DNA of 64,000 nt from Candidatus Undivivens industriae (GCA_012514745.1 JAAYZR010000020.1:13293-77292); one strand, 5' to 3'. Counted from the first letter of the stretch, positions 1 to 35,356 are shown. The notes: generated from the sequence alone by a model not told the origin. Program-made: numbers and translations.

Positions 1-214
1 TCGTCCAGAGGCATACCAAAGGCCTTGACGCTTCCCTGATCAGGAAATATGAGCGCGTCCAGCATGGATAACAACGTGGACTTACCGGTGCCGTTGGCCC
101 CGATCACGGCAGTCTTGGACCCCTGCATTATCGTCAAGTCGACGGAGCAGAGGGCGGGGAACCGTCCGAAGTACGAATAACCGGCCTGTTTCAGCTCGAA
201 CAATATGTTTGCCA
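1..214 (-). CDS. ECF/ABC transporter ATP-binding protein (CbiO/NikO/EcfA-like), N-terminal fragment; continues beyond window start
   Basis: Reverse-strand translation from ATG at 212-214 gives MANILFELKQAGYSYFGRF...GANGTGKSTLL (Walker A). Overlaps the stop of the upstream T-component gene, typical of cbiQO coupling. Confidence 0.7.
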
Positions 215-1030
215 TAGGACAAAAAAGAAGATGACCGCCGCGGCCGCCAGCATAAAAACATCTTTCACCCCGGCGCGGAATCCGCCGTACAAATAGGTCT
301 CCCCGGTGTACCCGCGCGAAAGCATGGCGTCATAAACCCTGTTCTGCATCTGGTATGAACGCTGCCAGAGAGTGGCGATATTCCAGGCCACTATCCTCTG
401 CCCCTTGACCGGAGAGACCGCGTATCCGCAGCGGCTTTTCATCGCCGTGTAGGTATCCTGTATTATGCCGATAAAAAGAAAGATATACCGGTAACACATC
501 CCCAGAGTCATCACGAATATCTGCGGCACCCGGAATACCCTCAATACCTTAAGCAGCGCGAAATGTTTTGTCGTCAGAGATAACAACACGCACAAGGAAA
601 CCGAAACGAGAACCCTGGAAAAGAAAATAAGCGCTCCGGCCGCCCCCTGCCGCGTTATTTGCAGAAGAAACCCGCCTATCCTGAACGATGCCAACGGTTC
701 TCCGGGAGTAAAAACGCTGAAGACAGAGGGGGCCGCGATGAAAAGCGCAAAAAACGGGATAAAAAACCATGTCCTGGAGAGAAAAAACACCGGGTTGATG
801 AAAGAGCAGCCGGCGGACAAGAGCGTTATAAGATAAATGACGGCGATCGCCGGGATGTCCCGCGAGAAAAGCACCGACAGAACTAAAAAAAACACCGCCG
901 CCGTTTTGAAACGCGGATCACGCGCCTGCAGGAAACCCTTCTTCGCGGCGTAATCATCGGCGAAGACCGACTCTCGTAGAAAAGCGACGGTTCCCATCAG
1001 GGATTTTTCTATAAAACGGCTTCTTTTCAT
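191..1030 (-). CDS. cbiQ: Energy-coupling factor transporter transmembrane (T) component, CbiQ/NikQ/EcfT family
   Basis: 279 aa polytopic membrane protein with CbiQ-like features, lying between cbiM/N and the ATPase. Confidence 0.75.
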   Translation of the reverse strand: MKRSRFIEKSLMGTVAFLRESVFADDYAAKKGFLQARDPRFKTAAVFFLVLSVLFSRDIPAIAVIYLITLLSAGCSFINPVFFLSRTWFFIPFFALFIAAPSVFSVFTPGEPLASFRIGGFLLQITRQGAAGALIFFSRVLVSVSLCVLLSLTTKHFALLKVLRVFRVPQIFVMTLGMCYRYIFLFIGIIQDTYTAMKSRCGYAVSPVKGQRIVAWNIATLWQRSYQMQNRVYDAMLSRGYTGETYLYGGFRAGVKDVFMLAAAAVIFFFVLWQTYCSS

Positions 1031-1072
1031 ATGATTGCAAACGCGGACACCGGTCGCAGATGGAATTGATAT

Positions 1073-2047
1073 CTATAGATATTCTCCTTTGCCCAGATAT
1101 GAAGCGTAATCTTTCACGCTCTCCTCGAGGGAAGCAAACTCGTGATCGCAGCCGGCGTTTCTCAATTTTGAGATATCTGCCTGCGTGAAATACTGATATC
1201 CCTGCCTTATATTCTCCGGCATATCTATATACTCGATCTTGGCCGCCTGGCCGGCGGCAGCGAAAACCGCGCGCGCCAGATCGTTCCAGCTCCTTGCCGC
1301 GCCTGTGCCGAGATTGAATATACCGCTCTTCCGCCGTTCCCGGAAGAAATAATACATCACCCCGACGGCGTCCTTGACGTAGACGAAATCCCTCTTTTGC
1401 CCGCCGTCCTGATAGGCGGGATTGTGAGACTTGAACAGCCGTATCGATCTGCCGGCGGCCGCCTCTTTGAAGTTCCGGCAAACCAGGCTCATCATCTCTG
1501 CCTTGTGATATTCATTAGGCCCGAACACGTTGAAAAACTTGAAGCCGGTGGCCTTCCTGAAACAGCCGTTACGCAGCAGCCAGAGATCAAAAAGATGTTT
1601 CGAGTAACCGTAAATATTGAGCGGTTTCAGACAAGGCAGCCTCTCCTCCTCGTCCCCGTAGCCGCTCTCGCCGGCGCCGTAAGTGGCGGCCGAAGAAGCG
1701 TAAATGAATTTCGCCGAATGGGCGAACGCCCACTCGGCGAGGCGCCTGGAATATTCGTAATTATTCTTCAGGTAATACGCGGCGTCGGTAAGAATGGTGG
1801 AACTGCAGGCGCCAAGATGGACTATCGTCCCGATACCGTCCAATTTCCCGGACTCAAGCAGTCCCGGGAGATCGTTTTTATGGACGTAATCCATAAAACG
1901 CTTCCCCCGCAGGTTCACCCATTTGGCGTCGCTGCCCAGATCGTCGACAACGATTATATCATATATACCTTCCCGGTTAAGTTTCCGGAGAAAACAACTG
2001 CCGATAAACCCTGCCCCTCCAGTGAGAATTATCTTTTTTTTAGCCAT
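1073..2047 (-). CDS. hldD: ADP-L-glycero-D-manno-heptose-6-epimerase
   Basis: 324 aa; N-terminal GGAGFIGS Rossmann motif and overall HldD/RfaD-like sequence (YASSAATYG, NVFGPNE). Confidence 0.85.
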   Translation of the reverse strand: MAKKKIILTGGAGFIGSCFLRKLNREGIYDIIVVDDLGSDAKWVNLRGKRFMDYVHKNDLPGLLESGKLDGIGTIVHLGACSSTILTDAAYYLKNNYEYSRRLAEWAFAHSAKFIYASSAATYGAGESGYGDEEERLPCLKPLNIYGYSKHLFDLWLLRNGCFRKATGFKFFNVFGPNEYHKAEMMSLVCRNFKEAAAGRSIRLFKSHNPAYQDGGQKRDFVYVKDAVGVMYYFFRERRKSGIFNLGTGAARSWNDLARAVFAAAGQAAKIEYIDMPENIRQGYQYFTQADISKLRNAGCDHEFASLEESVKDYASYLGKGEYL

Positions 2048-2086
2048 TCGAGGTAAGAAAAAAACGGCCCGCTGAGAAGACGCGCC

Positions 2087-2419
2087 TTAATCCTTCTTGA
2101 TCAGGAATTTTCCCAGCAGTATAACTACCGCCACGGTAATACCGATCCCGATAACCGCCGACGAGATATAGGCGAAGCTCAGATTACCCAACCCTTTCTC
2201 TTCCCATCCCTGGAAGGCGTAATCAGGAACGGGAGCGCTCCAGAGAGCCGAAAGCCTGGTAAATCCCTGCGGGACATATCCCACTAATTCCTGCAGAGTC
2301 TCCGCGCCCCACTCTCCCCAGGCGTCCCCCGCCTTGAAATATTCGGGAAGCAAAAGCCCCAGGGGGGAAAGAAACGCCAATAGAATCAATCCCAGCCAAA
2401 GTTTAGAAGTAGTTCTCAT
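2087..2419 (-). CDS. PDGLE-domain / CbiN-like small membrane component of the Ni/Co ECF transporter
   Basis: 110 aa with N-terminal TM, a PEYFKAGDAWGEWG segment (PDGLE-like) and a C-terminal TM; immediately downstream of cbiM. Confidence 0.55.
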   Translation of the reverse strand: MRTTSKLWLGLILLAFLSPLGLLLPEYFKAGDAWGEWGAETLQELVGYVPQGFTRLSALWSAPVPDYAFQGWEEKGLGNLSFAYISSAVIGIGITVAVVILLGKFLIKKD

Positions 2420-2423
2420 TTCC

Positions 2424-3107
2424 CTACCCCTCCTTTCCCGAAACGATCAATGAAGGATCCTGTTTCTGCAGGTATTTGACAACCAACGCGGTAATAAACG
2501 CCTCGACCCAGCCGAATACCAGCAAATGCTCTCCGAGCATCATCGGAACGGCGACATTAAGGCCGTAAGGACAATACAACGACTGGTCCGTCGGGGTTCT
2601 GTACAATAAAGGCTGTATGCCGAACATCAGCGCCGTAGTCAATGCGGCTATGTTCAACGCCAGGTAGCCGGCCGCGGCGGCGGCAAAAACCCTGCGGCCG
2701 GACGTTGAAGGCGAATTGCCGCTTATGAACTTGTAAATATAATAGCCGGTGAAGACCTCGACAAACGCCATATTGAAACAATTCGCGCCGACGGCGGTTA
2801 TGCCGCCGTCGCCGAAAAGCAGGGCTTGGACCACCAAGGCCACAGTGACCGCTATACAGGCGGCCCAGGGGCCGAGAAGTATAGCCGCCAGCACCGCGCC
2901 CACCGCGTGTCCGGTAGTCCCTCCGGGGATGGGGACGTTGAACATCATTATAACGAAACAGAAAGCGGCGCTGATGGCAAGCAGAGGGATTTGTTTGTTT
3001 TTAAGAGTTTTTTTAACCATCCGCGAAGCCAGCGCCCATACAGGCAACATCACCGCATACATCACTCCGCTCGTGGCGGGCCCCAAGTATCCGTCGGGTA
3101 TATGCAT
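2424..3107 (-). CDS. cbiM: ECF transporter substrate-specific component CbiM/NikM (nickel/cobalt)
   Basis: Starts MHIPDGYL, the hallmark N-terminus of CbiM/NikM; 227 aa polytopic. Confidence 0.9.
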   Translation of the reverse strand: MHIPDGYLGPATSGVMYAVMLPVWALASRMVKKTLKNKQIPLLAISAAFCFVIMMFNVPIPGGTTGHAVGAVLAAILLGPWAACIAVTVALVVQALLFGDGGITAVGANCFNMAFVEVFTGYYIYKFISGNSPSTSGRRVFAAAAAGYLALNIAALTTALMFGIQPLLYRTPTDQSLYCPYGLNVAVPMMLGEHLLVFGWVEAFITALVVKYLQKQDPSLIVSGKEG

Positions 3108-3155
3108 TTTTCTCTCCTGTGTTGATTGTTGTTCCTATCTCCAGGATATGTATGA

Positions 3156-3180
3156 TAGCACAAAAGCGATACTTGTGCTA
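3156..3180. promoter_or_regulatory. Perfect inverted repeat TAGCACAA-N9-TTGTGCTA between nikR and cbiM; candidate NikR operator
   Basis: 8-bp perfect arms separated by 9 bp, sitting in the 90-bp nikR-cbiM intergenic region; preceded by a GTATGA hexamer resembling the E. coli NikR half-site. Confidence 0.4.
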
Positions 3181-3197
3181 CTGAAAAACAAAATTTT

Positions 3198-3611
3198 TTA
3201 CACTCCTCTTCCGGTGGTCGCGGCGTTCAAGGATAAATGTTTCACGCCTTTTGTGGAACGCAGAAGATCGGCCAGCTCCTTAATCTCTGCGGCCTTCCCT
3301 TTTGCGGCGATCATCTCCAGACAATTGGAGTGGTCGAGATGAATATGCTGGGTGGAAATTATCAAATGCTGAAAATTATGCTGCACCGCCGTCAACTTGC
3401 TTAACAGTTCGCGTTTATGATGATCGTAAATAAGCGTGATAGCCCCGGCGACTACATTATCGTCGGCCCACTCTTGTTCCACCAGTTCCCGCCGGATAAG
3501 ATCCCTTATCGCTTCGGAACGGTTGCCGCACTTACGCTTCCGGATCAGGGCGTCGAACCCGGAAACCAGATTCTTTTCTATGGAGACGCCGAATCTTATG
3601 AGATTGCCCAT
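3198..3611 (-). CDS. nikR: Nickel-responsive transcriptional regulator NikR
   Basis: 137 aa; ribbon-helix-helix N-terminus (RSEAIRDLIRREL) and a C-terminal His/Cys metal site (HIHLDHSNC). Confidence 0.85.
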   Translation of the reverse strand: MGNLIRFGVSIEKNLVSGFDALIRKRKCGNRSEAIRDLIRRELVEQEWADDNVVAGAITLIYDHHKRELLSKLTAVQHNFQHLIISTQHIHLDHSNCLEMIAAKGKAAEIKELADLLRSTKGVKHLSLNAATTGRGV

Positions 3612-3767: not shown

Positions 3768-5459
3768 TTAAGAGATTCCATTCCTCTCCGCGACACAATT
3801 TCCCATGACCAGGATATCCATCTCACTGCGCTTGAAGCAGTCTATTGCGTCTTCTGGACGGCAAACGATCGGTTCTCCCCTTAAATTGAACGAAGTATTT
3901 ATCAATAAAGGAATGCCGGTCAGATTTTCGAATTCCTTGAGCAATCCACGCAAGCGGGAATTAGTATCGTTATCAACTATCTGTACCCTCGCGGTATTAT
4001 CAATATGCGTAACCGCGGGGATAACACCCTTTTTCTCTTCCTTTACCCTTCCGGCTATCAGCATAAACGGAGACTGTTGCAGCACATCAAAAAACTCGGC
4101 GCACCGCTCTTCAAGCACCGCTGGAGCATACGGCCGGAAATCCTCTCGGCGTTTCACCTTCAAATTCAGCAAATCTTTCATCCGCGGATTGCAGGGATTC
4201 GCCAATATGGAACGATTCCCCAAGGCCCTGGGGCCGAACTCCATCCTTCCCTGAAACCAACCGACGATTCTATCCTGCGCGATCTGCCCGGCTATATATT
4301 TGAGTAATTCGTCATCGGCATACTCCCGGAAAACGATATCTCCGTTAATAAACGCCCTCTTGATCTCCCTATCGTAAAACTCCGGCCCAAGATATACGTC
4401 TTTCAGCGCCGTGCGGCGGTTATCCCGCGATAAATAGTGATATACATAAACTGCCGCGCCTAACGCCCCTCCGCTGTCTCCGGAGGCGGGCTGAATGAAT
4501 AACTCCTTAACCGGAGTATCTTCTAAGATTCTAGCGTTAGCTACACAATTCATAAATAATCCGCCTGCCAAGCAAAGCCTCTTCATTCCGGTTCCCTTGT
4601 GCACGTTCCGAACTATATTTATCAGAATGTCCTCGGTTATTTTCTGCAAGCTGGCAGCTACATCGCAATGTCTTTGTTCGACCTTGTCCTGCGGGCGGCG
4701 TTCCTTTCCCAGCGTCTGTATCAGTTTTTCGGTATACATTCTCCCGCCTTTATTAAATCCGAAATATCTCTGGTCCAACATAAAACTACCGTCTGGCCTG
4801 ACAATGACCATCTTTTTGAATTTATCTACATATACCGGGGATCCGTAACCTGCCAGTCCCATCACCTTACCTTCGCCGGTCAGAGCCTCGAATCCCAGAT
4901 AAGTGGTGATCGCGCTGTAGAACAGTCCCAGTGAATTCGGGAAATGCAACTCTTTAGCGATGCGAACATCCACGCCACTGCCGACACCGAAGCTAGTGCT
5001 CGCCCATTCCCCCACGCCGTCCGCAATCAATATTGCCGCCTCTTCGAACGGAGAAACGAGGAACGAACTTGCAGCATGAGACAAGTGATGGTTTATGAAT
5101 ACGATCCTCCCCTCGTAACAAAGCTCTTTTCGCAATATCAACGGAAGGAAAAGCCGTTCCTTCAGCCAACCAGGCAATGTCCGGCAGAAACTGCCGAAAG
5201 AGAACGGGTATGCCCTTGCGTGGCTCAATAGGACACGGTAGAACTTGAGAAACGGTTTCTCATAAAAACCCACCGCGTTAATTTCTTTCATCGTTAAGTC
5301 AGCGTGCTGAAGACAATAATTTATCGCGTTTAAGGGGAACGCTGGAGAGCATTTACTGCGGTTGAACCGTTCTTCGGAGGCGGCGGCCGTTATCCTGCCG
5401 TCCTGCACGAGACAGGCAGCGGAATCATGATAAAAACATGATATACCCAATATATTCAT
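3768..5459 (-). CDS. Carbamoyltransferase, NodU/CmcH/TobZ family
   Basis: N-terminus MNILGISCFYHDSAA..., HHLSHAASSF, PASGDSG, GNRSIL motifs typical of O-carbamoyltransferases. The track ORF uses an upstream TTG; the ATG at 5459 is the more likely start. Confidence 0.85.
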   Translation of the reverse strand: MNILGISCFYHDSAACLVQDGRITAAASEERFNRSKCSPAFPLNAINYCLQHADLTMKEINAVGFYEKPFLKFYRVLLSHARAYPFSFGSFCRTLPGWLKERLFLPLILRKELCYEGRIVFINHHLSHAASSFLVSPFEEAAILIADGVGEWASTSFGVGSGVDVRIAKELHFPNSLGLFYSAITTYLGFEALTGEGKVMGLAGYGSPVYVDKFKKMVIVRPDGSFMLDQRYFGFNKGGRMYTEKLIQTLGKERRPQDKVEQRHCDVAASLQKITEDILINIVRNVHKGTGMKRLCLAGGLFMNCVANARILEDTPVKELFIQPASGDSGGALGAAVYVYHYLSRDNRRTALKDVYLGPEFYDREIKRAFINGDIVFREYADDELLKYIAGQIAQDRIVGWFQGRMEFGPRALGNRSILANPCNPRMKDLLNLKVKRREDFRPYAPAVLEERCAEFFDVLQQSPFMLIAGRVKEEKKGVIPAVTHIDNTARVQIVDNDTNSRLRGLLKEFENLTGIPLLINTSFNLRGEPIVCRPEDAIDCFKRSEMDILVMGNCVAERNGIS

Positions 5460-5565
5460 AGTGTAACCCTGCAATAAAATACGAGAATCCTACCTTTTGC
5501 CGGAGGGGTCAAGGTCTTTACCGCAAACACGAGCTGTTATCCAGACCGGTTCTTTCTTTCGCCGG

Positions 5566-5823
5566 TTAAGACTGAAAGCGGCCGTTATCGAAAGTACCGT
5601 CTTGTTCGGCGGAATCGATCCAGAAAGTGCCGTCTGTTTTCGCGCATCCGGCAAGGACCTTTCGCTTGAATACCGCCATGATCAAAACCGTCAATCCCAT
5701 ACCCAGGAAATAAACCACTGGCAGGCATATGCTCAACAACACTTTCTGTATCAAGCTTGTCAGGTTACGTAGAAAGGTCTTCCACATAAAAACTCCGCCC
5801 CTCGCCTTGTCCGTCAAAAACAT
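5566..5823 (-). CDS. Small membrane protein of unknown function wedged between the amidotransferase and carbamoyltransferase (possible SxtJ/SxtK-like accessory protein)
   Basis: 85-aa ORF; the internal start MWKTFLRNLTSLIQKVLL... is followed by one TM helix. Its position inside the operon supports it being real. Confidence 0.35.
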   Translation of the reverse strand: MFLTDKARGGVFMWKTFLRNLTSLIQKVLLSICLPVVYFLGMGLTVLIMAVFKRKVLAGCAKTDGTFWIDSAEQDGTFDNGRFQS

Positions 5824-6830
5824 AAATCATCCGGCCTGCATCCCAGTCTATCCAGTACCGGAAGTATATCTCCTTCTCTGAAATTGATTTCAAGCCGCTT
5901 CAATGCCTCTTCCCTGGTCAAAATACCCCTCCTTATCATCCTGCTCATCTCCGCGTGGTAATGCGAATAACCGTAATGCTTCAGGGACAGGAGCACCGAA
6001 AGAAAGTTCAGCCGGCAGTTTGTCGATCCGGCAGGATAGCTTAACGCCGTTGGTTTCCAACCCAGTTCCCGTTTTATCATCCCGGAATATTCCTCCTGGT
6101 CAAAAGGCAGAAACCAATGGGGTGAGATAACCGTGCATGCCGATTTTTGCCGGCCGGCTCTTTTAATGACTTCCTCAACGCTCGCCGGAAAATCCCTGTA
6201 TTTTGGATTCTGCCTACGGAATCTTTCCAGGAAATCCGCCGTCCCTTTCGCCATGGAAGAAAATTCCGGATGCCTGATCCTGCCGCGGCTGAACTGCCCC
6301 TTCGTCCAGCCGCCGATTATCACAGGGATGGACAATCCCGCAGCTATCCGTAACACGATACCCATATACCAGATAGAACAGACGTGGCAGATGACGGCTT
6401 TTGCTCTCGACTTCACTATCGCAGCGAACATATCCAGCATAAAATCGCTCTTGAACATAAGCGAGTCTACGCCGAGCCGTTCCACCGTGTTCCGAACGTT
6501 CTCCAGGGCATCCGGGAGTTCAAACCCGTTGTCGAAAGTAAACGCAAGAGGTTCCAGTTTATATCGCTTTTTCATGTAGTATAAAGCGGCGGTACTGTCT
6601 TTCCCTCCGCTACACATTACCAGGCAATGATATCTGCCGCGTTTTTTATTGCGTGTCAGCATCTTGATGAGTTCCGTTTCCAGTAAAGGGCTTTCCTGCC
6701 GGCGATAGTTCGCGCCTTTATGTCCGGAGCATAAACTGCATTGCCCAGCGGCGTTAAAAGTGATATCTGATTTATACTCCGGCATCACGCATTTCACGCA
6801 CAATTTGCCGGATTCATTCTTCACTTCCAT
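5814..6830 (-). CDS. PP-loop ATP pyrophosphatase family protein, N-acetyl sugar amidotransferase-like
   Basis: N-terminal Cys4 zinc ribbon (CVKC...CSLC) followed by the SGGKDS PP-loop motif. Confidence 0.7.
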   Translation of the reverse strand: MEVKNESGKLCVKCVMPEYKSDITFNAAGQCSLCSGHKGANYRRQESPLLETELIKMLTRNKKRGRYHCLVMCSGGKDSTAALYYMKKRYKLEPLAFTFDNGFELPDALENVRNTVERLGVDSLMFKSDFMLDMFAAIVKSRAKAVICHVCSIWYMGIVLRIAAGLSIPVIIGGWTKGQFSRGRIRHPEFSSMAKGTADFLERFRRQNPKYRDFPASVEEVIKRAGRQKSACTVISPHWFLPFDQEEYSGMIKRELGWKPTALSYPAGSTNCRLNFLSVLLSLKHYGYSHYHAEMSRMIRRGILTREEALKRLEINFREGDILPVLDRLGCRPDDLCF

Positions 6831-8272
6831 ATCGCCTCTCTTCCTAAGAAATCCATCACATTATTCGCCGCGTTCTCGGCAATAAGCGCGTTTCCTTTTC
6901 GCCGACAGTGTCCGAAGTTGCCTCCAAACATGTCCAGAAAATAATCCCGGTACCTGCCGCGTTTCAAGGCTTTTTTGAAAACATTCTCGTTGTCGATAAT
7001 AAGGACTCCGGGATTGCCGCCGAAAACTGTCTTCAAAGGTTCGACGCTACGCATGGGATACCCCATACACGCAAGTTTGATACCCTTTTTATCCAATATC
7101 TCCTTCATCTTTTTATAATTATATACGGTCAGAGCGCTGTAGGAAGATGCTTGCGCCGTATCCATCTTTCCGGTAAAGACGTCTGCCAAATCCGGCCTGC
7201 CGGTTTCCCGGTAAAGAGTGGATAATGCCGCGTAAACTTTTGCGCTCCCCGGATTAAAAGACACATATTTCTTTAGGACTTCCTCCGAACGGGAATATTT
7301 GCCTGTCCGCATATAAACCCAGGCGAGTTCCACATATCCTTTCTCATCGTAAGGATCAGCTTCTATAAGCCTTTTAAATATCTCCTCTGCGCTGTGATAC
7401 GCGGTCCTTGAAGAACAGAATAGCCCGTACCCCAGCAATGCTCCCTTGTCGGAAGGATCAACGTTCAATGCCGCCACAAAGCTATCTTTCGCTTCCAGAT
7501 ACTTCTTGTTCTGCGTATATGTCCACCCCAGTTCCACGTATGTGGAAGGATTGGTCGGGTTAACCGCCAGGGCTTTTCTAAACGCTTCTTCAGCCTTGAG
7601 ATATTGTCCTTTTTCCCGGTAAAATCTCCCAAGTCGTATATAATCATTCTCTCCGTATTTCCCGGGATCAGCTTCACCGGACTGCTCTTCCGCTGCCGGT
7701 TGTCCACCTATATCCGCGCCGGAGACAGGGGGAACCTTCTTTTTCGACACGGATCGCACCTTAAATTTCCCTCGGATATCCAATGAAAGAAACTTTAAGA
7801 AACGGTACGCGGCGGAATACCTAAACAATATGGATTCAGTATCCTGAATACCCTCGTAATATTTAATGTGCCTGTCGTTTATACCCATCATGGCGATCAC
7901 CATGTCCGGTTTGTATTTTTCCACATTCTCTTCCAAATGCCTGATGATATAGTTACTATCGACTGTAGATACGCCTTTATTGATCACACGAAAACAGAAC
8001 CCGTTCCCCAAGCGGTTCAACATCGTCTCAAGCTGGCTCGGATAAGAATTCTCCCCTCCTATCGCGGTGGAAGATTCACCGACGCACATAATCTTATAAA
8101 CTCCCCTGTGTTCTATACCCTGCCTGTTCCGGCATTCCTGTAGAAAAGATATCATGCAGCAGCCGAGACGGAGAACAATCTCAAGGAATATCAGGGACAT
8201 GAACAGTCCGGATATTACAACTAACGCCCGGGTAATCCCCTCGGTGAACTTTCTTCCCCTCATCGATATCAT
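6821..8272 (-). CDS. Membrane-anchored SGNH/GDSL-like hydrolase with a large TPR-repeat insertion (divergent paralog)
   Basis: N-terminal TM; block I as CVGESST, block III GINDRH; TPR repeats (AEEAFRKALAVNP...); C-terminal FGHC where DGHC is expected. Confidence 0.6.
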   Translation of the reverse strand: MISMRGRKFTEGITRALVVISGLFMSLIFLEIVLRLGCCMISFLQECRNRQGIEHRGVYKIMCVGESSTAIGGENSYPSQLETMLNRLGNGFCFRVINKGVSTVDSNYIIRHLEENVEKYKPDMVIAMMGINDRHIKYYEGIQDTESILFRYSAAYRFLKFLSLDIRGKFKVRSVSKKKVPPVSGADIGGQPAAEEQSGEADPGKYGENDYIRLGRFYREKGQYLKAEEAFRKALAVNPTNPSTYVELGWTYTQNKKYLEAKDSFVAALNVDPSDKGALLGYGLFCSSRTAYHSAEEIFKRLIEADPYDEKGYVELAWVYMRTGKYSRSEEVLKKYVSFNPGSAKVYAALSTLYRETGRPDLADVFTGKMDTAQASSYSALTVYNYKKMKEILDKKGIKLACMGYPMRSVEPLKTVFGGNPGVLIIDNENVFKKALKRGRYRDYFLDMFGGNFGHCRRKGNALIAENAANNVMDFLGREAIWK

Positions 8273-9858
8273 TTCCCTTCCGCCTCCAGGAAATTCAATA
8301 AATTACGCGCTATAACGGCATACCCATCGGCGCTGCAGTGCCCGTCGGAGACAAAACAATTGCGGGAGACCGCCCTGTCCATAACCGAGAAAACACGGTA
8401 ATTGCTCACGAAAGGTATCGAATTATCCCCGGCGATTTTCGACATCAGCTCCGAGAAACTCTCGTCTCCGGGATAATCCATCAAGAGCATCCTGCTCTTA
8501 TGACGACGACAGATATCCGCGATCTCTCGTATATCCGAAATTATCCACTGTTTGACATCGTCGAAATAGGATATCTTTTTAAGTAATGCGGCTATTTTGG
8601 GGGGAAGAACGCTGCTATTCTTAGCGAGCGACTCCGAAATGGCGGAACGATCGCCGCCGAAGATGCGCACAAGGTCGGACCGGGTATCAATATCCTCCGG
8701 ATCAAGGCAGGCGGCCAGCAGTATGCATTCTCTCGACTTCGCGGTCTCGCCTTTATTCGCATACACGCCGGCAAGACATCTATAAAGATCCCCGTTCATC
8801 CGATCGACGGCGATACCCTTTTCCAGCCATGCCACAGCCTCATCATAAAGTGCCTGCCTCGCATAAGCCGTCCCGATGCTCAAATAACATATCCCCGATT
8901 TAGGATCTATCTCAAGCCCTTTCCTGTACCATTCTACCGCCTCATCATAAAAACGCTGCTGTAAATAAAACCATCCGGTTTCCACATAACATTCTATGTC
9001 CCCTGGTCCGGTTTTAAAAGACTGATCCAGCCATTTTTTTGCTTCTTCATAACGTCCCAGAGAAACACATAATCCTCCCATGCGCGCGTAGCCTTCGCTT
9101 GAGGAGGGCTCGATCTCTATCCCTTTCAGAAAACATTTCTCGGCTTCGGGGTATGAACCGCATTCGGCCAAGGCAACGCCGAGTTCGATATAAGCCTTAC
9201 TCCCATGATCTCCGCGGCGGAAGCGCGCTTTCACCTTTTCTAAGAATGTTGTCCGGCCGCCGACAGAGCCGTAATTGTACGTAGCCGGAATGTTGCCGAA
9301 TGTGTCTACAGGAGAACCGCCCCGTTTTCTTATCTTCCAGGAAATCAAAGCGGTAAATTTCCCGACTTTGGTACGAAAAAACCATTTGACCGGCAACGCT
9401 GTCATCCCGGATTGTCTCTCCCGGCCGTAAAAATTCCAGTAATTATTACCACCGCCCAGAAGAATTACCAGGTCCGGAGCTGTGCCTTCTCTCAAAGCCG
9501 CCTGAAAATCAGAAATGATCTGCGTGGTATTATAAGAACATCTCCCGCGGTTCATTACCTGAAATTTACCTTCTGGATACCTGGAACCGAGCATCCTTGC
9601 CAGCTGAGTCGGATAATCAAGATCATGCGCCGCGCCCAGGCCGTAAGTAAACGAATCTCCTATACATAGTATTCTGTAGCCGCTCTGGACCTGTTTGTAT
9701 TTATCAATACCCTGCCGATGGAAGATGAAGAATCCGCCGGCGCGCAGGATAATCTCCAAAACGAAGAAAACTAAAGCCCCGCCGATTAAGAATGCCGCCA
9801 TTTTCCGCATGATTGCTTTTTCGGACATATCATACCGGCCGATGCCGCCTCTGGTCAC
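8269..9858 (-). CDS. Membrane-anchored SGNH/GDSL hydrolase with a ~300 aa TPR-repeat insertion between blocks III and V
   Basis: Block I CIGDSFTYG, block II NRG, block III GGGNNY, then several TPRs, then block V SDGHC. Paralog of 6821..8272. Confidence 0.65.
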   Translation of the reverse strand: MTRGGIGRYDMSEKAIMRKMAAFLIGGALVFFVLEIILRAGGFFIFHRQGIDKYKQVQSGYRILCIGDSFTYGLGAAHDLDYPTQLARMLGSRYPEGKFQVMNRGRCSYNTTQIISDFQAALREGTAPDLVILLGGGNNYWNFYGRERQSGMTALPVKWFFRTKVGKFTALISWKIRKRGGSPVDTFGNIPATYNYGSVGGRTTFLEKVKARFRRGDHGSKAYIELGVALAECGSYPEAEKCFLKGIEIEPSSSEGYARMGGLCVSLGRYEEAKKWLDQSFKTGPGDIECYVETGWFYLQQRFYDEAVEWYRKGLEIDPKSGICYLSIGTAYARQALYDEAVAWLEKGIAVDRMNGDLYRCLAGVYANKGETAKSRECILLAACLDPEDIDTRSDLVRIFGGDRSAISESLAKNSSVLPPKIAALLKKISYFDDVKQWIISDIREIADICRRHKSRMLLMDYPGDESFSELMSKIAGDNSIPFVSNYRVFSVMDRAVSRNCFVSDGHCSADGYAVIARNLLNFLEAEGK

Positions 9859-9918: not shown

Positions 9919-10080
9919 CTATATTCCGGCGTAAATAAAAGAGATTATCACGCTCGGTCCGACATAGAAAACAAGGAGGGCTAAAAGCGCAAATGTTATT
10001 AGGATCGGCGCAAGAAAATAGATCTTATGCGCCTTGATCAAGTGGAAGGTTTCTTTAAAAAGATATACTGCTTTATTCAT
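9919..10080 (-). CDS. Unannotated 53-aa membrane protein, DUF5989 / SxtK-like (family usually found beside carbamoyltransferases)
   Basis: Reverse-strand ORF MNKAVYLFKETFHLIKAHKIYFLAPILITFALLALLVFYVGPSVIISFIYAGI. Pattern F-KE-F-LIK--K-YFL-PI...G-S-I--FIY is as I recall it for SxtK-like proteins. Absent from the ORF track because it is under 60 aa. Confidence 0.5.
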   Translation of the reverse strand: MNKAVYLFKETFHLIKAHKIYFLAPILITFALLALLVFYVGPSVIISFIYAGI

Positions 10081-10304
10081 GCTGCCCACGCTCGTTTTTT
10101 CAGATCATGCGTCCGGTGAGATTTGTTTTTTATTATAATACCTTAGGGAAACACTAACAAGCAATAAAATTCAGATCCAGGAGAAGGATGAAGACGAAAG
10201 GAAGCTGACGGCACCGTCTGCCGCCGCTGTGGCCTATAAGATTGCCCGCTTGTCCCGCAGTCCGGCGAGAAACGCGTGGTCGGTAGCGTCGTTGATAAGC
10301 GGGG

Positions 10305-13357: not shown

Positions 13358-13942
13358 TCATTTTATAACACAAACTTTTTTTTCTGTCAAGAGGGTATTT
13401 TTTTTACCGGACGCGGAGCTTTTTCGCCTCAACTCTTCTATCTTCTCCTGCACGTACCAGGAAAAATATCCTTTATATTCCCTCTGCAGGGCCGGTTTCA
13501 TCCAGTCTTTGGTGGTGACCAGCCCGCGGCAGCGCGGAGAGCCGCAGCGGCACTTGAAAGAATAATCGAAATCCGCGTCGGTCATGCAGTAATCGTAGGT
13601 CACTTCTTCGCCGGGCGAGATATCGCGCATCGCCGCTATAATCAAATGCCCTTTGATCCCGGCGTTGGGGGAACAACTATGATTGAAAAAATCGTCATCC
13701 TCCAGCCCCCCTTTTTTACAGGAAACCAGGAAGAACCCGTCGGCCACCCGAGTGGCGTAATTTTCTATTTCTTTGAAACAGGTCTTTTCCAGCTTAACGA
13801 ACTCGGATTGCGAAATAATAAACCCTCCCCAGACCGCGATTATTTCGTTTTTCCTGATCGGCTCGACCGCGAAAACTCCGCGGTGATCGATCCCGGAACG
13901 GTTCACCTTGACTTTACCGCTGACGTAGGAATGCTTAAGCAT
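13358..13942 (-). CDS. SET-domain protein-lysine N-methyltransferase-like
   Basis: NHSCSPN motif, the catalytic Tyr region (TYDY) and a Cys-rich post-SET C-R-C-G-S-P-R-C. The start overlaps the upstream saccharopine-dehydrogenase-like gene by 8 nt. Confidence 0.75.
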   Translation of the reverse strand: MLKHSYVSGKVKVNRSGIDHRGVFAVEPIRKNEIIAVWGGFIISQSEFVKLEKTCFKEIENYATRVADGFFLVSCKKGGLEDDDFFNHSCSPNAGIKGHLIIAAMRDISPGEEVTYDYCMTDADFDYSFKCRCGSPRCRGLVTTKDWMKPALQREYKGYFSWYVQEKIEELRRKSSASGKKNTLLTEKKVCVIK

Positions 13943-14945
13943 TTCTTTTTTCCCGCCTGACGATCGTTACGCCTTGTTTTTTGACCCCGTCTATCAACGC
14001 CTGGAAAATCGTCTTGTCGGCGGCAAGGTCTTCCAGGAAAACCAGCCCTTTGCGCTCAATCTTTCCATCCAGCAAAAGCCTGCCGACTGCGGCCGGGACG
14101 CTGGCCGTTATTTTCTGCATCGAGTTCCACTTTTCCCTCGCAGCGGAAAAACTTTTCAAGAACCAGACGATGCGTTTGCCGGGGAAAACGACTTCCACCT
14201 CCCCAAGGGTATAATTTGCCCGCCTGATCCTCTCTAAAAAAGCCTTGCTTTCGGCCATGCGTTCCGGAGAAAACAATCCGTAGCTCTCGGAGAAACGGAA
14301 AAAGGCGGCGAACCCCGAGGGCCTGACCACGCGGCAGGTCAGGCTGCGCGCCCCTGTTTTATCCAGGATATTCTCGAATCCGCTGGCAGAATAATAACTT
14401 TCCGCCTCTATGCCGAAATACTTCTCCCTCCGGTAACCGGCAAATGCCGGGAACCTTTTCTTCCTGCCGGAAATGATCTGGCTGGATACGAGCCGGTGTT
14501 CGAGTATCAAATCCTCGAAACACCATAAAAAAGGGAAATAATCACCCTGCGGGGAGAGAGAGCCGGCCTTCACGTGGATCTCGAGCACTCGGACGGGAGA
14601 ACAGGTTTCCCTGCCGAGGAGAAAATTGACTATTCCGGGGCAGAAACCGCACCCCGGTATCACCGTTATCCCGCTTTTGCCGATCTCTTTTCCCCTGGCC
14701 TGGTATATTTCGGGATCGACATCCGAGACGTCGACGAGATCTTTACGGTATTTCAAAGCCAGGTCCAGACAGCGTTCACCGATCTCCCCGGCCAAAGCGC
14801 CGGTGATCAGATCGGCGTTCCGCAAATCTTTCTCGTTCTCGAGGGAGAAAGCGCGGATATCCCTGTTCTGCCTGTTGAAAAAATGCAGGACCGCGCGGCT
14901 TATACGGCCGTCTCCGGCAACCGCTACTTTGTAACGGAATTTCAT
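13935..14945 (-). CDS. Saccharopine dehydrogenase-family NAD(P)-binding protein (possible polyamine-modifying dehydrogenase)
   Basis: VAVAGDGRISR Rossmann start and ITVIPGCGFCPGIVN, typical of saccharopine / carboxy(nor)spermidine dehydrogenase-like enzymes. Downstream of speE. Confidence 0.65.
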   Translation of the reverse strand: MKFRYKVAVAGDGRISRAVLHFFNRQNRDIRAFSLENEKDLRNADLITGALAGEIGERCLDLALKYRKDLVDVSDVDPEIYQARGKEIGKSGITVIPGCGFCPGIVNFLLGRETCSPVRVLEIHVKAGSLSPQGDYFPFLWCFEDLILEHRLVSSQIISGRKKRFPAFAGYRREKYFGIEAESYYSASGFENILDKTGARSLTCRVVRPSGFAAFFRFSESYGLFSPERMAESKAFLERIRRANYTLGEVEVVFPGKRIVWFLKSFSAAREKWNSMQKITASVPAAVGRLLLDGKIERKGLVFLEDLAADKTIFQALIDGVKKQGVTIVRREKRNA

Positions 14946-15835
14946 CTCTTCTTGAGACGCCAGATCTTAGGCGTGACCAGGCTGGCCAGGTGCATTTCCG
15001 GGGAATAATACTTCAGGTCCGCGGCTTTGGCGCCCAGACGCTGCTGCAGCCTGCGCTTCAACACCGGAAGGGCAAGTTTTGCCGGATCGACCTTCTTGGA
15101 CGCCATCAGGAAGCAGTATTCGCATCCGCAGCTGTAGGAAGGCATCGGCAGCCTGACCGGATTAAGATAAGTGAACAGTTTGGAGAGTTTTTCCACCGTT
15201 CCCCTGATGATGATGTCGAAGTCCAGGAACGGCCCCAACTGGAATATGGCGATGCCGTCTTCCGTGAGAGCCTCGTGCACGCTCTTATAGAAATCCCCCT
15301 GGAACAGGGCTTTTCCCGGCCCCACGGGATCGGTGGAATCAACCACGATGATATCGAAATGATTCTTGTGCGCCTTGATGAATCTTCTGCCGTCCTGGAA
15401 GGCAAGAGTCAGTCTCTTGTCCGTGAAACTCCCCTGCGAGACGAAAGGCAGGTACTTCCTGGCCATCCCGACCACTTCCTCGTCGATATCTACCAAGCTC
15501 ATTTCCTTCAAAGGATGCTTGCGCGCCTCCCGCAGAACGCCGCCGTCCCCGCCCCCCACCACCAGCAGTCTTTTGGGATCCGGGTGCGTCATCAACGGCA
15601 CGTGGGCGATGATCTCGTGGTAAATAAACTCATCGCTCTGGGAAAATTGTATGATCCCGTCCAGGGCGAGCATCTTGCCGAACCCGAGGCTCTCGAATAT
15701 ATATATCTTTTGATATTTGGTCCTGCCGGCAAAGATTTCCTTTTCTACCCGGAAGGTATCTTTTTTGCATCGTCTGATGCCGGGAAAAGCGGCTTCCACA
15801 AACCATTTTTCTTTCTTCGCGGATATGGCTTTCAC
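14942..15835 (-). CDS. speE: Spermidine synthase (aminopropyltransferase)
   Basis: VVGGGDGGVLRE and DSTDPVGP motifs; 297 aa. Confidence 0.9.
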   Translation of the reverse strand: MKAISAKKEKWFVEAAFPGIRRCKKDTFRVEKEIFAGRTKYQKIYIFESLGFGKMLALDGIIQFSQSDEFIYHEIIAHVPLMTHPDPKRLLVVGGGDGGVLREARKHPLKEMSLVDIDEEVVGMARKYLPFVSQGSFTDKRLTLAFQDGRRFIKAHKNHFDIIVVDSTDPVGPGKALFQGDFYKSVHEALTEDGIAIFQLGPFLDFDIIIRGTVEKLSKLFTYLNPVRLPMPSYSCGCEYCFLMASKKVDPAKLALPVLKRRLQQRLGAKAADLKYYSPEMHLASLVTPKIWRLKKR

Positions 15836-15836
15836 T

Positions 15837-16202
15837 TTATAGTCCTCTTTTCAGCAATTTAACTCTTACTTTTGTAGGTTTGATTTTATTTTTAAGGAAT
15901 TCGAGGGCGGCGTAAGGGCGGGTATTTTCGCCGCAGGTAAAAATATCGAGGGCGATATGATTATGCTCGGGCCAGGTGTGAATGGCGATATGCGACTCCG
16001 CCAATATGACCACACCCGTAATCCCCTGCACGGGGAACTTGTACACGGAAGCTTTTAACGGCGTATTGTTGGCCGCTTTAGCCGCCCCCCAAAGCAATTT
16101 CTTCACCGCCGCGGGAGTCTCGTTCATCTTTTTAGGCGCTTCCAGATCGGCAATCAAATGGACAGTTCTAAAAGTCCCTTTTGTCTTAGAACAGCCTGTC
16201 AT
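15837..16202 (-). CDS. speH: S-adenosylmethionine decarboxylase proenzyme (SpeH type, pyruvoyl-dependent)
   Basis: 121 aa with the self-processing site ILAESHIAIHTWPE. Confidence 0.85.
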   Translation of the reverse strand: MTGCSKTKGTFRTVHLIADLEAPKKMNETPAAVKKLLWGAAKAANNTPLKASVYKFPVQGITGVVILAESHIAIHTWPEHNHIALDIFTCGENTRPYAALEFLKNKIKPTKVRVKLLKRGL

Positions 16203-34313: not shown

Positions 34314-34724
34314 TCATATCTCCTCGATTGTTTCCCTTGCCCATTGATAAACTCTCGCAGTTACTTTAACCATCTCATCCGCAAAGGATTTGTTGATGCT
34401 GCGGCATTCGTATTGGACAAGGTTTTTGCGGGCGATGATTTTACGTAACTGCTTTGATTTCTCCTCAGTGCTTTCAAGCGTCAATCCAGCTACTAAGTCG
34501 CAAACATCAAAGTGGTCTTGCGAAATCGAACGCACGCCCTTTCCATAGACGCAAACCGCATCTGCGGATGAAATCGCACATTGAACAGCCAAGGTTGCTG
34601 CCGCATTCCAGTTTGAAGCATTAAATGCGGCTAACATCTGCTCATAATTATCGGCGGCCTTCTTTAAATATTCTGAAGCTGCCGACCTATCCTCTTGCCT
34701 TATTTTTATCTCGCGAGCAGTCAT
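34314..34724 (-). CDS. HEPN-domain protein (putative toxin of a HEPN/MNT pair)
   Basis: 136 aa alpha-helical; R-x5-H motif (RSISQDH). It lies 2 nt downstream of the nucleotidyltransferase gene. Confidence 0.55.
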   Translation of the reverse strand: MTAREIKIRQEDRSAASEYLKKAADNYEQMLAAFNASNWNAAATLAVQCAISSADAVCVYGKGVRSISQDHFDVCDLVAGLTLESTEEKSKQLRKIIARKNLVQYECRSINKSFADEMVKVTARVYQWARETIEEI

Positions 34725-34726
34725 AT

Positions 34727-35356
34727 CTAAATCTCCAATGGTTCTTTCCCATATAAAACGGAATAAGATTTCATTAAGGTTGAAACCGGAGGCTGATTCT
34801 TTTTAAGTCGCTGCCTAAAGTCGGCGGATGACTTTATATATGAATCTAGCTGAACGCCGAAATAGGCCTTAAATCTGGGGGCAATTTCAGAAAGGAAGAC
34901 ATTTTCAACTGAATTAAGATCCACGGCCCTAGAGACTACCACCGCAACGTCAATATCGCTTCCCTTTTTAGCTGTTTCTGTCTGCATGCTTCCATAAAGG
35001 ATTAAAGATGCAATTTTGGCTTTAATCTTAATTCGTTTGAATTCTTTCAAAAGAAAGTTACGGATTTCGCTTTTAATATTACTTTCAGCGGCAAACATCG
35101 GATGAATAATTTTTTTAACAATCCGATCTTCCTCATTTAAAGTATAAATATGTTGCTTGCCAATAATATCTAATTTTAAGATGTTACGGCTATGCAGATC
35201 TTTTAATGAGTCATGTGTTGAGGGAGCTGAATAACCAATGAGCTTAGCAATTTGGCGGCCTGTAGTTTTGAAGTTCTTTCGGGCAGTTAAAAGCCGCAAA
35301 ATAGCTACTTTGGAAGGAGAATCAACGATTTCTTCAATTTGGAATGCTTTAATCAT
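34727..35356 (-). CDS. Nucleotidyltransferase (MNT, GS-x-DxD) with N-terminal winged-HTH; putative antitoxin
   Basis: LILYGSMQTETAKKGSDIDVAVVV pol-beta-type NTase motif; N-terminal HTH (VAILRLL...GRQIAKLIGYS). Confidence 0.65.
   Translation of the reverse strand: MIKAFQIEEIVDSPSKVAILRLLTARKNFKTTGRQIAKLIGYSAPSTHDSLKDLHSRNILKLDIIGKQHIYTLNEEDRIVKKIIHPMFAAESNIKSEIRNFLLKEFKRIKIKAKIASLILYGSMQTETAKKGSDIDVAVVVSRAVDLNSVENVFLSEIAPRFKAYFGVQLDSYIKSSADFRQRLKKNQPPVSTLMKSYSVLYGKEPLEI

Follow-up and report, generated by a model that had tools for sequence, protein, structure and literature searches.

Proteins of the SGNH/GDSL superfamily (PF13472; CE2/CE3 esterases, PatB, OatA, Ape1) adopt a five-stranded alpha/beta/alpha fold in which block I contributes a Ser, block II a Gly, block III an Asn and block V a His. 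Some members, such as AlgJ and DltD, are N-terminally anchored and extracytoplasmic. The membrane anchor of AlgJ has been described (PMC4148444), and AlgX, a periplasmic SGNH-like acetyltransferase, is found in complex with AlgK, a scaffold of tetratricopeptide repeats (TPR) (PMC9734138). TviD, the Vi-antigen O-acetyltransferase of S. Typhi and Bordetella, combines an SGNH-type domain and TPR in one polypeptide; its TPR domain serves membrane association and partner binding, and its block V Asp is dispensable (PMC8760489). In the sxtI-J-K-L module, the GDSL-lipase homolog SxtL was proposed to act as a decarbamoylating enzyme (PMC2679770, PMC2885083). Here, two adjacent genes, open reading frames (ORF) A and B, were analysed in a 64,000-nucleotide stretch of DNA from Candidatus Undivivens industriae (GCA_012514745.1 JAAYZR010000020.1:13293-77292), hereafter called the window. 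Coordinates are counted from its first letter, and both genes and their operon lie on the minus strand.

Each of the two encoded proteins is predicted, from sequence profiles and structural models, to be an SGNH fold interrupted by a nested TPR array. With moderate confidence, both are interpreted as diverged, catalytically competent and membrane-anchored SGNH serine esterases or transferases, which belong to a family of Omnitrophota and act on a carbamoylated or acylated substrate of the cell envelope.

ORF B (8269-9858, 529 amino acids (aa)) represents the 'GDSFT' subtype, with Ser69 encoded at 9652-9654 and His507 at 8338-8340. ORF A (6821-8272, 483 aa) represents the 'GES(T)T' subtype, with Ser67 at 8072-8074 and His455 at 6908-6910. 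Both genes were found where a preliminary description of the window had placed them, together with the motifs GDSFTYG, GGGNNY and SDGHC in ORF B and GESST, GINDRH and NFGHC in ORF A. The ATG of ORF A overlaps the stop codon of ORF B (ATGA) and a GGAGG sequence is located 13 nt upstream; the two genes are predicted to be translationally coupled. The 3' end of ORF A is in turn overlapped by 10 nt by the next gene, encoding a PP-loop enzyme. The start of ORF B is uncertain, being either the GTG at 9858 or the ATG at 9828, with a clear ribosome-binding site at neither; the latter corresponds to the Joint Genome Institute gene call P0001, a protein of 519 aa beginning at Met11. Pairwise alignment (BLASTP) covered the full length of ORF A and ORF B and showed them to be paralogs (23% identity, E 8e-29), and no further paralogs were detected within the window by tblastn.

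The assignment of the TPR was strong. Pfam TPR families matched the middle of both proteins with E-values from 1e-15 to 6e-22, tandem 34-residue helix-turn-helix repeats were found in both, and consensus-TPR proteins of the PDB matched ORF B at E 1e-103. Intact ORF A and ORF B aligned with Lipase_GDSL_2 (PF13472) over the N-terminal half of the profile only, ORF B with 52.6 bits, above the gathering cutoff of 32.9 bits. When the TPR region of ORF B was excised in silico (deletion chimera without residues 147-428), the half-profile match became an end-to-end match, covering positions 1-178 of 178 with 58.9 bits. Together with the models and the natural variants described below, this supports one SGNH domain formed by the N- and C-terminal segments, and not two unrelated domains, with the TPR array nested between block III and the helix preceding strand 4 in both proteins. 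The nesting of TPR inside an SGNH domain had been proposed in the preliminary description. Searching the PDB with the sequence of intact ORF B returned mainly designed and natural TPR proteins and nothing on the catalytic domain. A homolog search with the TPR-excised chimera gave only five weak matches, GDSL or AlgX-like proteins 330-400 aa long, and their genomic contexts were uninformative.

AlphaFold models were obtained from a family alignment of 72-73 sequences. The models of ORF A and ORF B reached a predicted local distance difference test score (pLDDT) of 82.9 and 83.3 and a predicted template modelling score (pTM) of 0.73 and 0.69, respectively. The elements follow each other in identical order in the two models, starting with a long N-terminal helix, then strands 1-3, a helix, a low-confidence linker of about 30 residues and 10-12 paired TPR helices, and after these a helix, strands 4-5 and a C-terminal helix. 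An alpha/beta/alpha fold with a five-stranded parallel sheet was modelled for both proteins.

In ORF B, the N-terminal half of the SGNH domain (9421-9687; PF13472 match at residues 65-180) carries blocks I (GDSFT), II (NRG) and III (GGGNN), with model strands 1-3 at residues 61-67, 99-105 and 130-135. It is followed by a basic amphipathic helix and a disordered linker (aa 147-217, 9208-9420), modelled with helices at 155-180 and a pLDDT below 50 at 177-199. The TPR array of 5-6 repeats (aa 218-413, 8620-9207) matches TPR_1, TPR_2 and TPR_8 with E 1e-19 to 4e-22 and is modelled as paired helices at 220-413, and the C-terminal half (8272-8619) comprises helix alpha-3, strands 4-5 and block V (SDGHC). 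The layout of ORF A is the same. Its N-terminal half (7868-8107) carries blocks I (GESST), II (NKG) and III (GIND), with model strands at 58-65, 93-98 and 124-128; the amphipathic helix and disordered linker (aa 144-207, 7652-7843) show helices at 148-170 and a pLDDT below 50 at 169-203. Five repeats (aa 208-377, 7142-7651; TPR_8, TPR_17 and TPR_2, E 6e-22 to 2e-19; ten helices at 208-373) precede the C-terminal half (6824-7141) with helix alpha-3, strands 4-5, the invariant D447 and block V (NFGHC).

The catalytic N-terminal segment has a length of just 80-110 residues approximately; therefore, what it lacks of the SGNH fold must come from the C-terminal segment. Since Ser, Gly and Asn are located before the TPR array and His after it, one active site would be built from segments separated by about 250-290 residues. 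Natural members of the family without TPR, P0203 (310 aa) and P0263 (323 aa), retain the N- and C-terminal segments as well as the amphipathic helix and the linker. Among 202 complete family proteins, the Ser-to-His spacing ranged from 207 to 667 residues (median 423), which corresponds roughly to 0 to 13 repeats at a single insertion site. The insertion point is the loop following block III. In SGNH structures such as E. coli TAP, this loop borders the substrate cleft. The C-terminal end of the TPR array joins helix alpha-3 at a pLDDT of 70-90, i.e. with moderate confidence, and its N-terminal end is tethered by the disordered linker. The architecture had been called unusual, which holds in comparison with the described SGNH families (the term TPR is absent from a 2022 review of 16 of them) but not with respect to its frequency in nature. 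With zero to about 13 TPR inserted at one loop, the family offers a natural example of a repeat scaffold grafted into an enzyme without breaking it.

The preliminary description had considered one of the two copies, ORF A, to have degenerate catalytic motifs. Comparison of the catalytic positions revealed Ser67, Gly100, Asn132 and His455 in ORF A and Ser69, Gly105, Asn138 and His507 in ORF B. Across 73 family sequences, the five positions of block I were occupied by G (73), E (63, with D in 9 and G in 1), S (73), T (61) and T (73). The Glu which replaces the canonical Asp in block I of ORF A (GESST) is therefore the norm of the family and not a loss; the block I Ser is present in both proteins. 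Conservation was also high for the block II Gly (72/73), the block III Asn (67/73) and the block V His (72/73). What remains of the claim is the replacement of Asp by Asn three residues before the His (His-3) in block V of ORF A. This position is variable in the family (D 53, N 9, E 4, and also Y, V and G), and Asn recurs there in several non-orthologous members. An Asp corresponding to D447 in ORF A and D505 in ORF B is invariant (73/73); it sits at His-8 in the former and at His-2 in the latter.

The canonical block V motif DxxH is found in neither protein, the respective sequences being N-F-G-H in ORF A and D-G-H in ORF B. Activity in the absence of the block V Asp is well documented for SGNH enzymes, among them many CE2 esterases and SsEst (PMC9487903), Ser-His dyad enzymes of the superfamily are active (PMC9487903), and the D250A mutant of TviD remains active (PMC8760489). 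The missing motif does thus not exclude membership in the superfamily. The ratio of non-synonymous to synonymous substitution rates (dN/dS), computed against orthologs at 57-93% identity, was 0.09-0.18 for ORF A and 0.16-0.23 for ORF B, i.e. purifying selection on ORF A is at least as strong as on ORF B. Judged by their residues, both proteins look catalytically competent.

One hydrophobic N-terminal helix was identified in each protein by Kyte-Doolittle analysis. In ORF B it spans approximately aa 20-46 (9721-9801; maximum over 19 residues of 2.55 at residue 20; model helix 13-53) and in ORF A approximately aa 13-44 (8141-8236; maximum of 2.57 at residue 16; model helix 2-51). Within the latter, E31 and R35 are conserved across the family. 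The N-terminal flank of the helix is more positive than the C-terminal flank in 68/73 family members. This would correspond to a type II signal-anchor topology, in which the SGNH-TPR body, like that of AlgJ and DltD, is on the periplasmic side. The active site may then be held at the membrane surface by the membrane helix together with the conserved amphipathic helix, which is basic and aromatic, and the TPR superhelix may dock a partner protein or a polymer, in the way the TPR of AlgK does for AlgX and that of TviD for TviE. By a Ser-His(-Asp447/505) mechanism, an O-acyl or O-carbamoyl group would be removed from, or transferred on, an envelope glycoconjugate or a lipid-linked intermediate. 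The nearest structures of ORF A and ORF B are those of carbohydrate acetylesterases, PatB, OatA and Ape1. Hydrolysis is considered somewhat more likely than transfer, and it is probably the substrate or the partner that distinguishes the tandem paralogs, not one of them being active and the other dead.

The substrate is proposed to be made by the cytoplasmic enzymes encoded next to the pair, the carbamoyltransferase and the PP-loop enzyme, and the action on it would match the role put forward for SxtL next to SxtI-J-K. ORF B and ORF A are the second and third genes of a six-gene operon, which starts with a small membrane protein of the DUF5989 family (9919-10089, 56 aa; PF19451, E 6.4e-8, 33 bits against a cutoff of 27; E 3.7e-27 with a custom hidden Markov model). 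ORF A is followed by a WbuX-like PP-loop ATP pyrophosphatase with an N-terminal Cys4 motif (5814-6830, 338 aa; TIGR03573, E 7e-41, below the family cutoff), which is 48% identical to its counterpart in the related locus L003. The next gene encodes a small single-helix membrane protein of 85 aa with a conserved T-F-W tail (5566-5823), for which no match was obtained in Pfam (E<=10) or NCBIfam; it is a member of the cassette, with homologs in the related loci L001, L003 and L008. The last gene codes for a carbamoyltransferase of the NodU/CmcH/SxtI type (3768-5474, 568 aa; Carbam_trans_N and Carbam_trans_C, each E 2e-72). Carbamoyltransferase, DUF5989 and GDSL/SGNH genes thus stand together in the window operon (10089-3768). 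A promoter-like site, TTGTTA-17-TATAAT, lies upstream of the operon (10132-10160; 10/12 in a consensus scan, a pattern match only), and a terminator-like hairpin is located at 10207-10225, 3' of surE. At the other end, the operon boundary is marked by a strong promoter-like site at 3705-3677 (11/12 matches). The ORFs directly downstream (191-3611, minus strand) were tentatively assigned by eye to a NikR-like regulator, to cobalt or nickel uptake of the CbiM/CbiN/CbiQ type and to an ADP-heptose-epimerase-like protein.

The neighbourhood of the family was surveyed in the best 80 of at least 464 loci from species-representative genomes, considering neighbours within 10 kb. Carbamoyltransferase and DUF5989 genes were each found in 23 loci, the PP-loop gene in 15, the small-protein gene in 14 and MBOAT in two. 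DUF5989 was located directly upstream of the SGNH-TPR gene in about a dozen of the 23 loci having one. By estimate rather than by a computed statistic, chance alone would produce far less of this linkage for a gene that has one or two copies per genome. The same gene set was present in varying order in the distant relatives L003-5 and L008, and the cassette also recurred in L011-14 among others. The locus L001 (GCA_049293575.1, 1198-9970) is an ortholog locus at 51-58% identity, with PP-loop, small-protein and B and A genes. Ahead of its B and A pair lie genes for an MBOAT, for three radical-SAM enzymes that bind B12, and for a carrier protein and an adenylating enzyme, which resemble Dlt parts, and then the PP-loop and small-protein genes; no carbamoyltransferase was found in the 10 kb upstream or the approximately 8 kb downstream of its B gene.

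A word-index search for homologs of ORF B returned only four full-length relatives, because words from the TPR filled the candidate list. Using ORF A as query opened up the SGNH-TPR family: at least 349 proteins were obtained. Most of them have 450-680 aa and show 30-40% identity across some 95% of the length; almost all come from Candidatus Omnitrophota, and their only name is "tetratricopeptide repeat protein". When the TPR-free residues 1-170 of ORF A were used in an exhaustive HMMER search, 1,614 clusters at 50% identity were obtained (E<=1e-10), the top matches being mostly N-terminal in proteins of 400-680 aa. Most of the best 80 loci carry the label Candidatus Omnitrophota or Omnitrophica, about 20 are labelled Planctomycetales, Planctomycetia or 'uncultured bacterium', and single or few loci are labelled Elusimicrobia, Patescibacteria, Rickettsiales or, for the window's own species, Sulfurovum. 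The labels other than Omnitrophota are read here as doubtful or mislabelled bins, and the family appears almost entirely confined to Omnitrophota. One such case is the contig L011 (CAZGNT010000026.1), deposited as 'uncultured Sulfurovum sp.', whose match to an 85-residue query from ORF A is 100% identical and in which the six genes of the cassette are all present and ordered as in the window; its closest relatives are metagenome-assembled genomes of Candidatus Omnitrophota, and an error of binning or labelling is therefore probable. A number of the 'Planctomycetales' and 'Elusimicrobia' labels look like similar errors. Members of the Omnitrophota are uncultured, often ultra-small and possibly host-dependent or predatory. 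In literature searches covering SGNH, TPR and Omnitrophota as well as DUF5989, no account of an SGNH-TPR family was encountered. A large SGNH family is thereby defined, which databases label just as "tetratricopeptide repeat protein".

Two subtypes were distinguished within the family, a B type with GDSFT and a short block V and an A type with GES(T)T and DMFxG[D/N]FGHC. The same cassette may hold different sets of them: B and A in the window and in L001, three B copies in L003 and two A copies in L008. A rule of one 'GDS' and one 'GES' paralog per cassette was thus rejected, as L003 has three GDS-type and L008 two GES-type copies. Multiplicity itself is conserved, with two to three tandem copies in 30 of the best 80 loci, but the pairing of an active with a dead copy is not. 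In L006 (GCA_028711865.1, JAQTRK010000010.1, 1-16000), about ten SGNH-TPR paralogs of 549-686 aa each are arranged head-to-tail, followed by genes for a sulfatase-family protein, a PMT_2 glycosyltransferase, a B12-radical-SAM protein and a DegT aminotransferase.

Several observations weigh against the interpretation of both proteins as competent, periplasmic enzymes acting on a carbamoylated or acylated envelope substrate. The Pfam score of ORF A was below the gathering cutoff of PF13472, with 25.2 bits for the intact protein and 29.8 bits after excision of the TPR. For the topology, the positive-inside rule is the only basis, and ORF A and ORF B themselves show just a small difference in charge. 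Within the window, genes for an MBOAT or an AT3 acyl translocase were not found; MBOAT occurs within 10 kb in just two of the 80 related loci and in L001. A periplasmic transferase would thus need another donor route, which favours a hydrolase. As only about 30% of the members are near the carbamoyltransferase cassette, action on carbamoylated substrates need not be general in the family. Finally, the SGNH protein of the comparable cassette of S. meliloti, described below, showed no significant similarity to ORF B or P0203 (BLASTP), so that the link to SxtL-type proteins is given by context and fold and not by demonstrated orthology.

Among the alternatives, the one that survives best, although it is judged unlikely, has the body of the proteins facing the cytoplasm. 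ORF A and ORF B would be TviD-like O-acyltransferases modifying a nascent glycan at the inner face of the membrane, and the TPR array would recruit the carbamoyltransferase, the PP-loop enzyme or a glycosyltransferase. The modest charge bias of the window proteins is compatible with such an orientation, and the two operon partners, carbamoyltransferase and PP-loop enzyme, are ATP-dependent enzymes of the cytoplasm; in L008, moreover, a GT4 gene follows the SGNH-TPR pair. The precedent is TviD itself, an SGNH O-acetyltransferase whose TPR domain is needed for membrane association and TviE binding. However, TviD is devoid of a membrane helix and has its TPR C-terminal and not nested, known N-terminally anchored SGNH proteins such as AlgJ (PMC4148444) and DltD are extracytoplasmic, and the charge bias over the family (68/73) favours a cytoplasmic N-terminus and an outer body.

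A second alternative, less likely still, is a role in the tailoring of peptides or natural products. The TPR groove would bind a peptide and the SGNH domain would act as protease or esterase in a RiPP-type (peptide made by the ribosome and modified after translation) or small-molecule carbamoylation pathway, the models being the biosynthesis of crocagin (CgnD with CgnI) and that of saxitoxin (SxtL with SxtI). CgnD, an SGNH-type leader peptidase from a cluster which has a carbamoyltransferase, was the best PDB match by sequence; yet its similarity (E 0.003) is marginal and no better than that of many carbohydrate esterases. The cassette of L001 is flanked by radical-SAM, carrier-protein and adenylating-enzyme genes, and radical-SAM genes were also found in L006 and L008, a context that adds to the sxtIJKL parallel. 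No precursor peptide or core biosynthetic gene was found in the window operon, and the membrane anchor, the more than 1,600 clusters and the arrays of up to about ten copies fit envelope functions better than a single pathway.

The pairing of an active esterase, ORF B, with ORF A as its non-catalytic TPR scaffold or regulator, i.e. the enzyme plus pseudo-enzyme of the preliminary description, is improbable and lacks support: Asn452 of ORF A at His-3, where 53/73 relatives have Asp, its score under the Pfam cutoff for Lipase_GDSL_2 and the coupling of both genes, compatible with a heteromer, speak for it, but Ser67, Gly100, Asn132, His455 and the invariant D447 are all kept, GES is the family consensus, Asn, Glu, Tyr, Val and Gly occur at His-3 in unrelated members, the canonical DxxH is missing from ORF B too, Ser-His dyad enzymes (PMC9487903) and TviD D250A (PMC8760489) are active, the dN/dS of ORF A (0.16-0.18) is lower than that of ORF B (0.20-0.23), and other genomes contain sets of two A or three B copies.

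Two further regions of the window were noted. A dip of the guanine plus cytosine (GC) content at 34-36 kb (0.40 versus approximately 0.50-0.55) includes, at 34314-35356 on the minus strand, a gene for a 209-aa NTP_transf_2 protein (E 3e-8) adjoining one for a 136-aa protein without Pfam match. The pair resembles the layout of MNT/HEPN-type toxin-antitoxin systems and was possibly acquired horizontally. At 13358-16202 (minus strand), four genes form a run. One encodes a bacterial protein of 194 aa with a SET domain (Pfam SET, E 2e-15) and another is saccharopine-dehydrogenase-like according to a weak Pfam match; the remaining two ORFs were tentatively assigned by eye as spermidine-synthase-like and S-adenosylmethionine-decarboxylase-like, which would make a polyamine cluster.

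In comparison with the SGNH superfamily, with which they share the fold and the catalytic residues of blocks I, II, III and V, ORF A and ORF B are distinguished by what is nested between block III and helix alpha-3, namely a TPR array of 170-200 residues plus an amphipathic helix and a linker. Further differences are the GES of block I in the A subtype, the acid located off the canonical His-3 position and a conserved Cys after the His (GHC). TviD differs from both proteins in that its TPR are C-terminal to a complete SGNH domain, its nucleophile is Cys18, and it is a cytoplasmic protein without membrane helix; in ORF A and ORF B, the TPR are nested, Ser occupies the nucleophile position and an N-terminal membrane helix is present. 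In the AlgK-AlgX system, TPR and SGNH are carried by separate proteins and depend on the MBOAT AlgI. Neither ORF A nor ORF B matched the ALGX (PF16822) or DltD profiles at E<=1, and membership in the AlgX/AlgJ or DltD families was rejected on the basis of these missing matches and of the lack of an MBOAT in the window.

The sxt module is close to the window operon in gene content. In both, a carbamoyltransferase gene adjoins a small ORF of DUF5989 size (54 aa in sxtK) and genes for another small membrane protein and for a GDSL/SGNH protein. In contrast to the sxt module, the SGNH component of the window is duplicated and contains nested TPR, and a WbuX-like PP-loop enzyme is added. The second small protein of the window (85 aa) does not match Pfam SxtJ (PF19588), and only the T-[FY]-W tail could be aligned with SxtJ-like proteins (hhalign, probability 1.4%). 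Comparable cassettes occur elsewhere: on pSymB of S. meliloti, the gene annotated as an SGNH/GDSL hydrolase of 442 aa is grouped with those for an SxtJ-like protein, a member of DUF5989 (E 1e-24) and a carbamoyltransferase, and on a Planctomyces plasmid, carbamoyltransferase, SxtJ, DUF5989 and a sugar O-acetyltransferase are part of an exosortase and exopolysaccharide (EPS) locus.

By analogy with AlgI/J/X, PatA/B and DltB/D, it is conceivable, if rather improbable, that carbamoyltransferase, DUF5989, the small membrane protein and the SGNH-TPR proteins form a trans-envelope machine for group transfer. A carbamoyl or acyl group activated in the cytoplasm would cross the membrane with the help of the small membrane proteins, form a covalent intermediate on the serine of the periplasmic SGNH domain and then be passed onto a polymer that runs through the TPR groove, and the specificity for site or substrate would be set by the tandem paralogs. 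If true, this would represent a new route for extracytoplasmic carbamoylation of glycans and would provide genes of the SxtJ, SxtK/DUF5989 and SxtL types with a function in bacteria generally. The association of carbamoyltransferase and DUF5989 genes ties the SGNH-TPR family to the long-unexplained sxtJ, sxtK and sxtL and to the rhizobial and planctomycete cassettes, which makes it relevant to many genomes.

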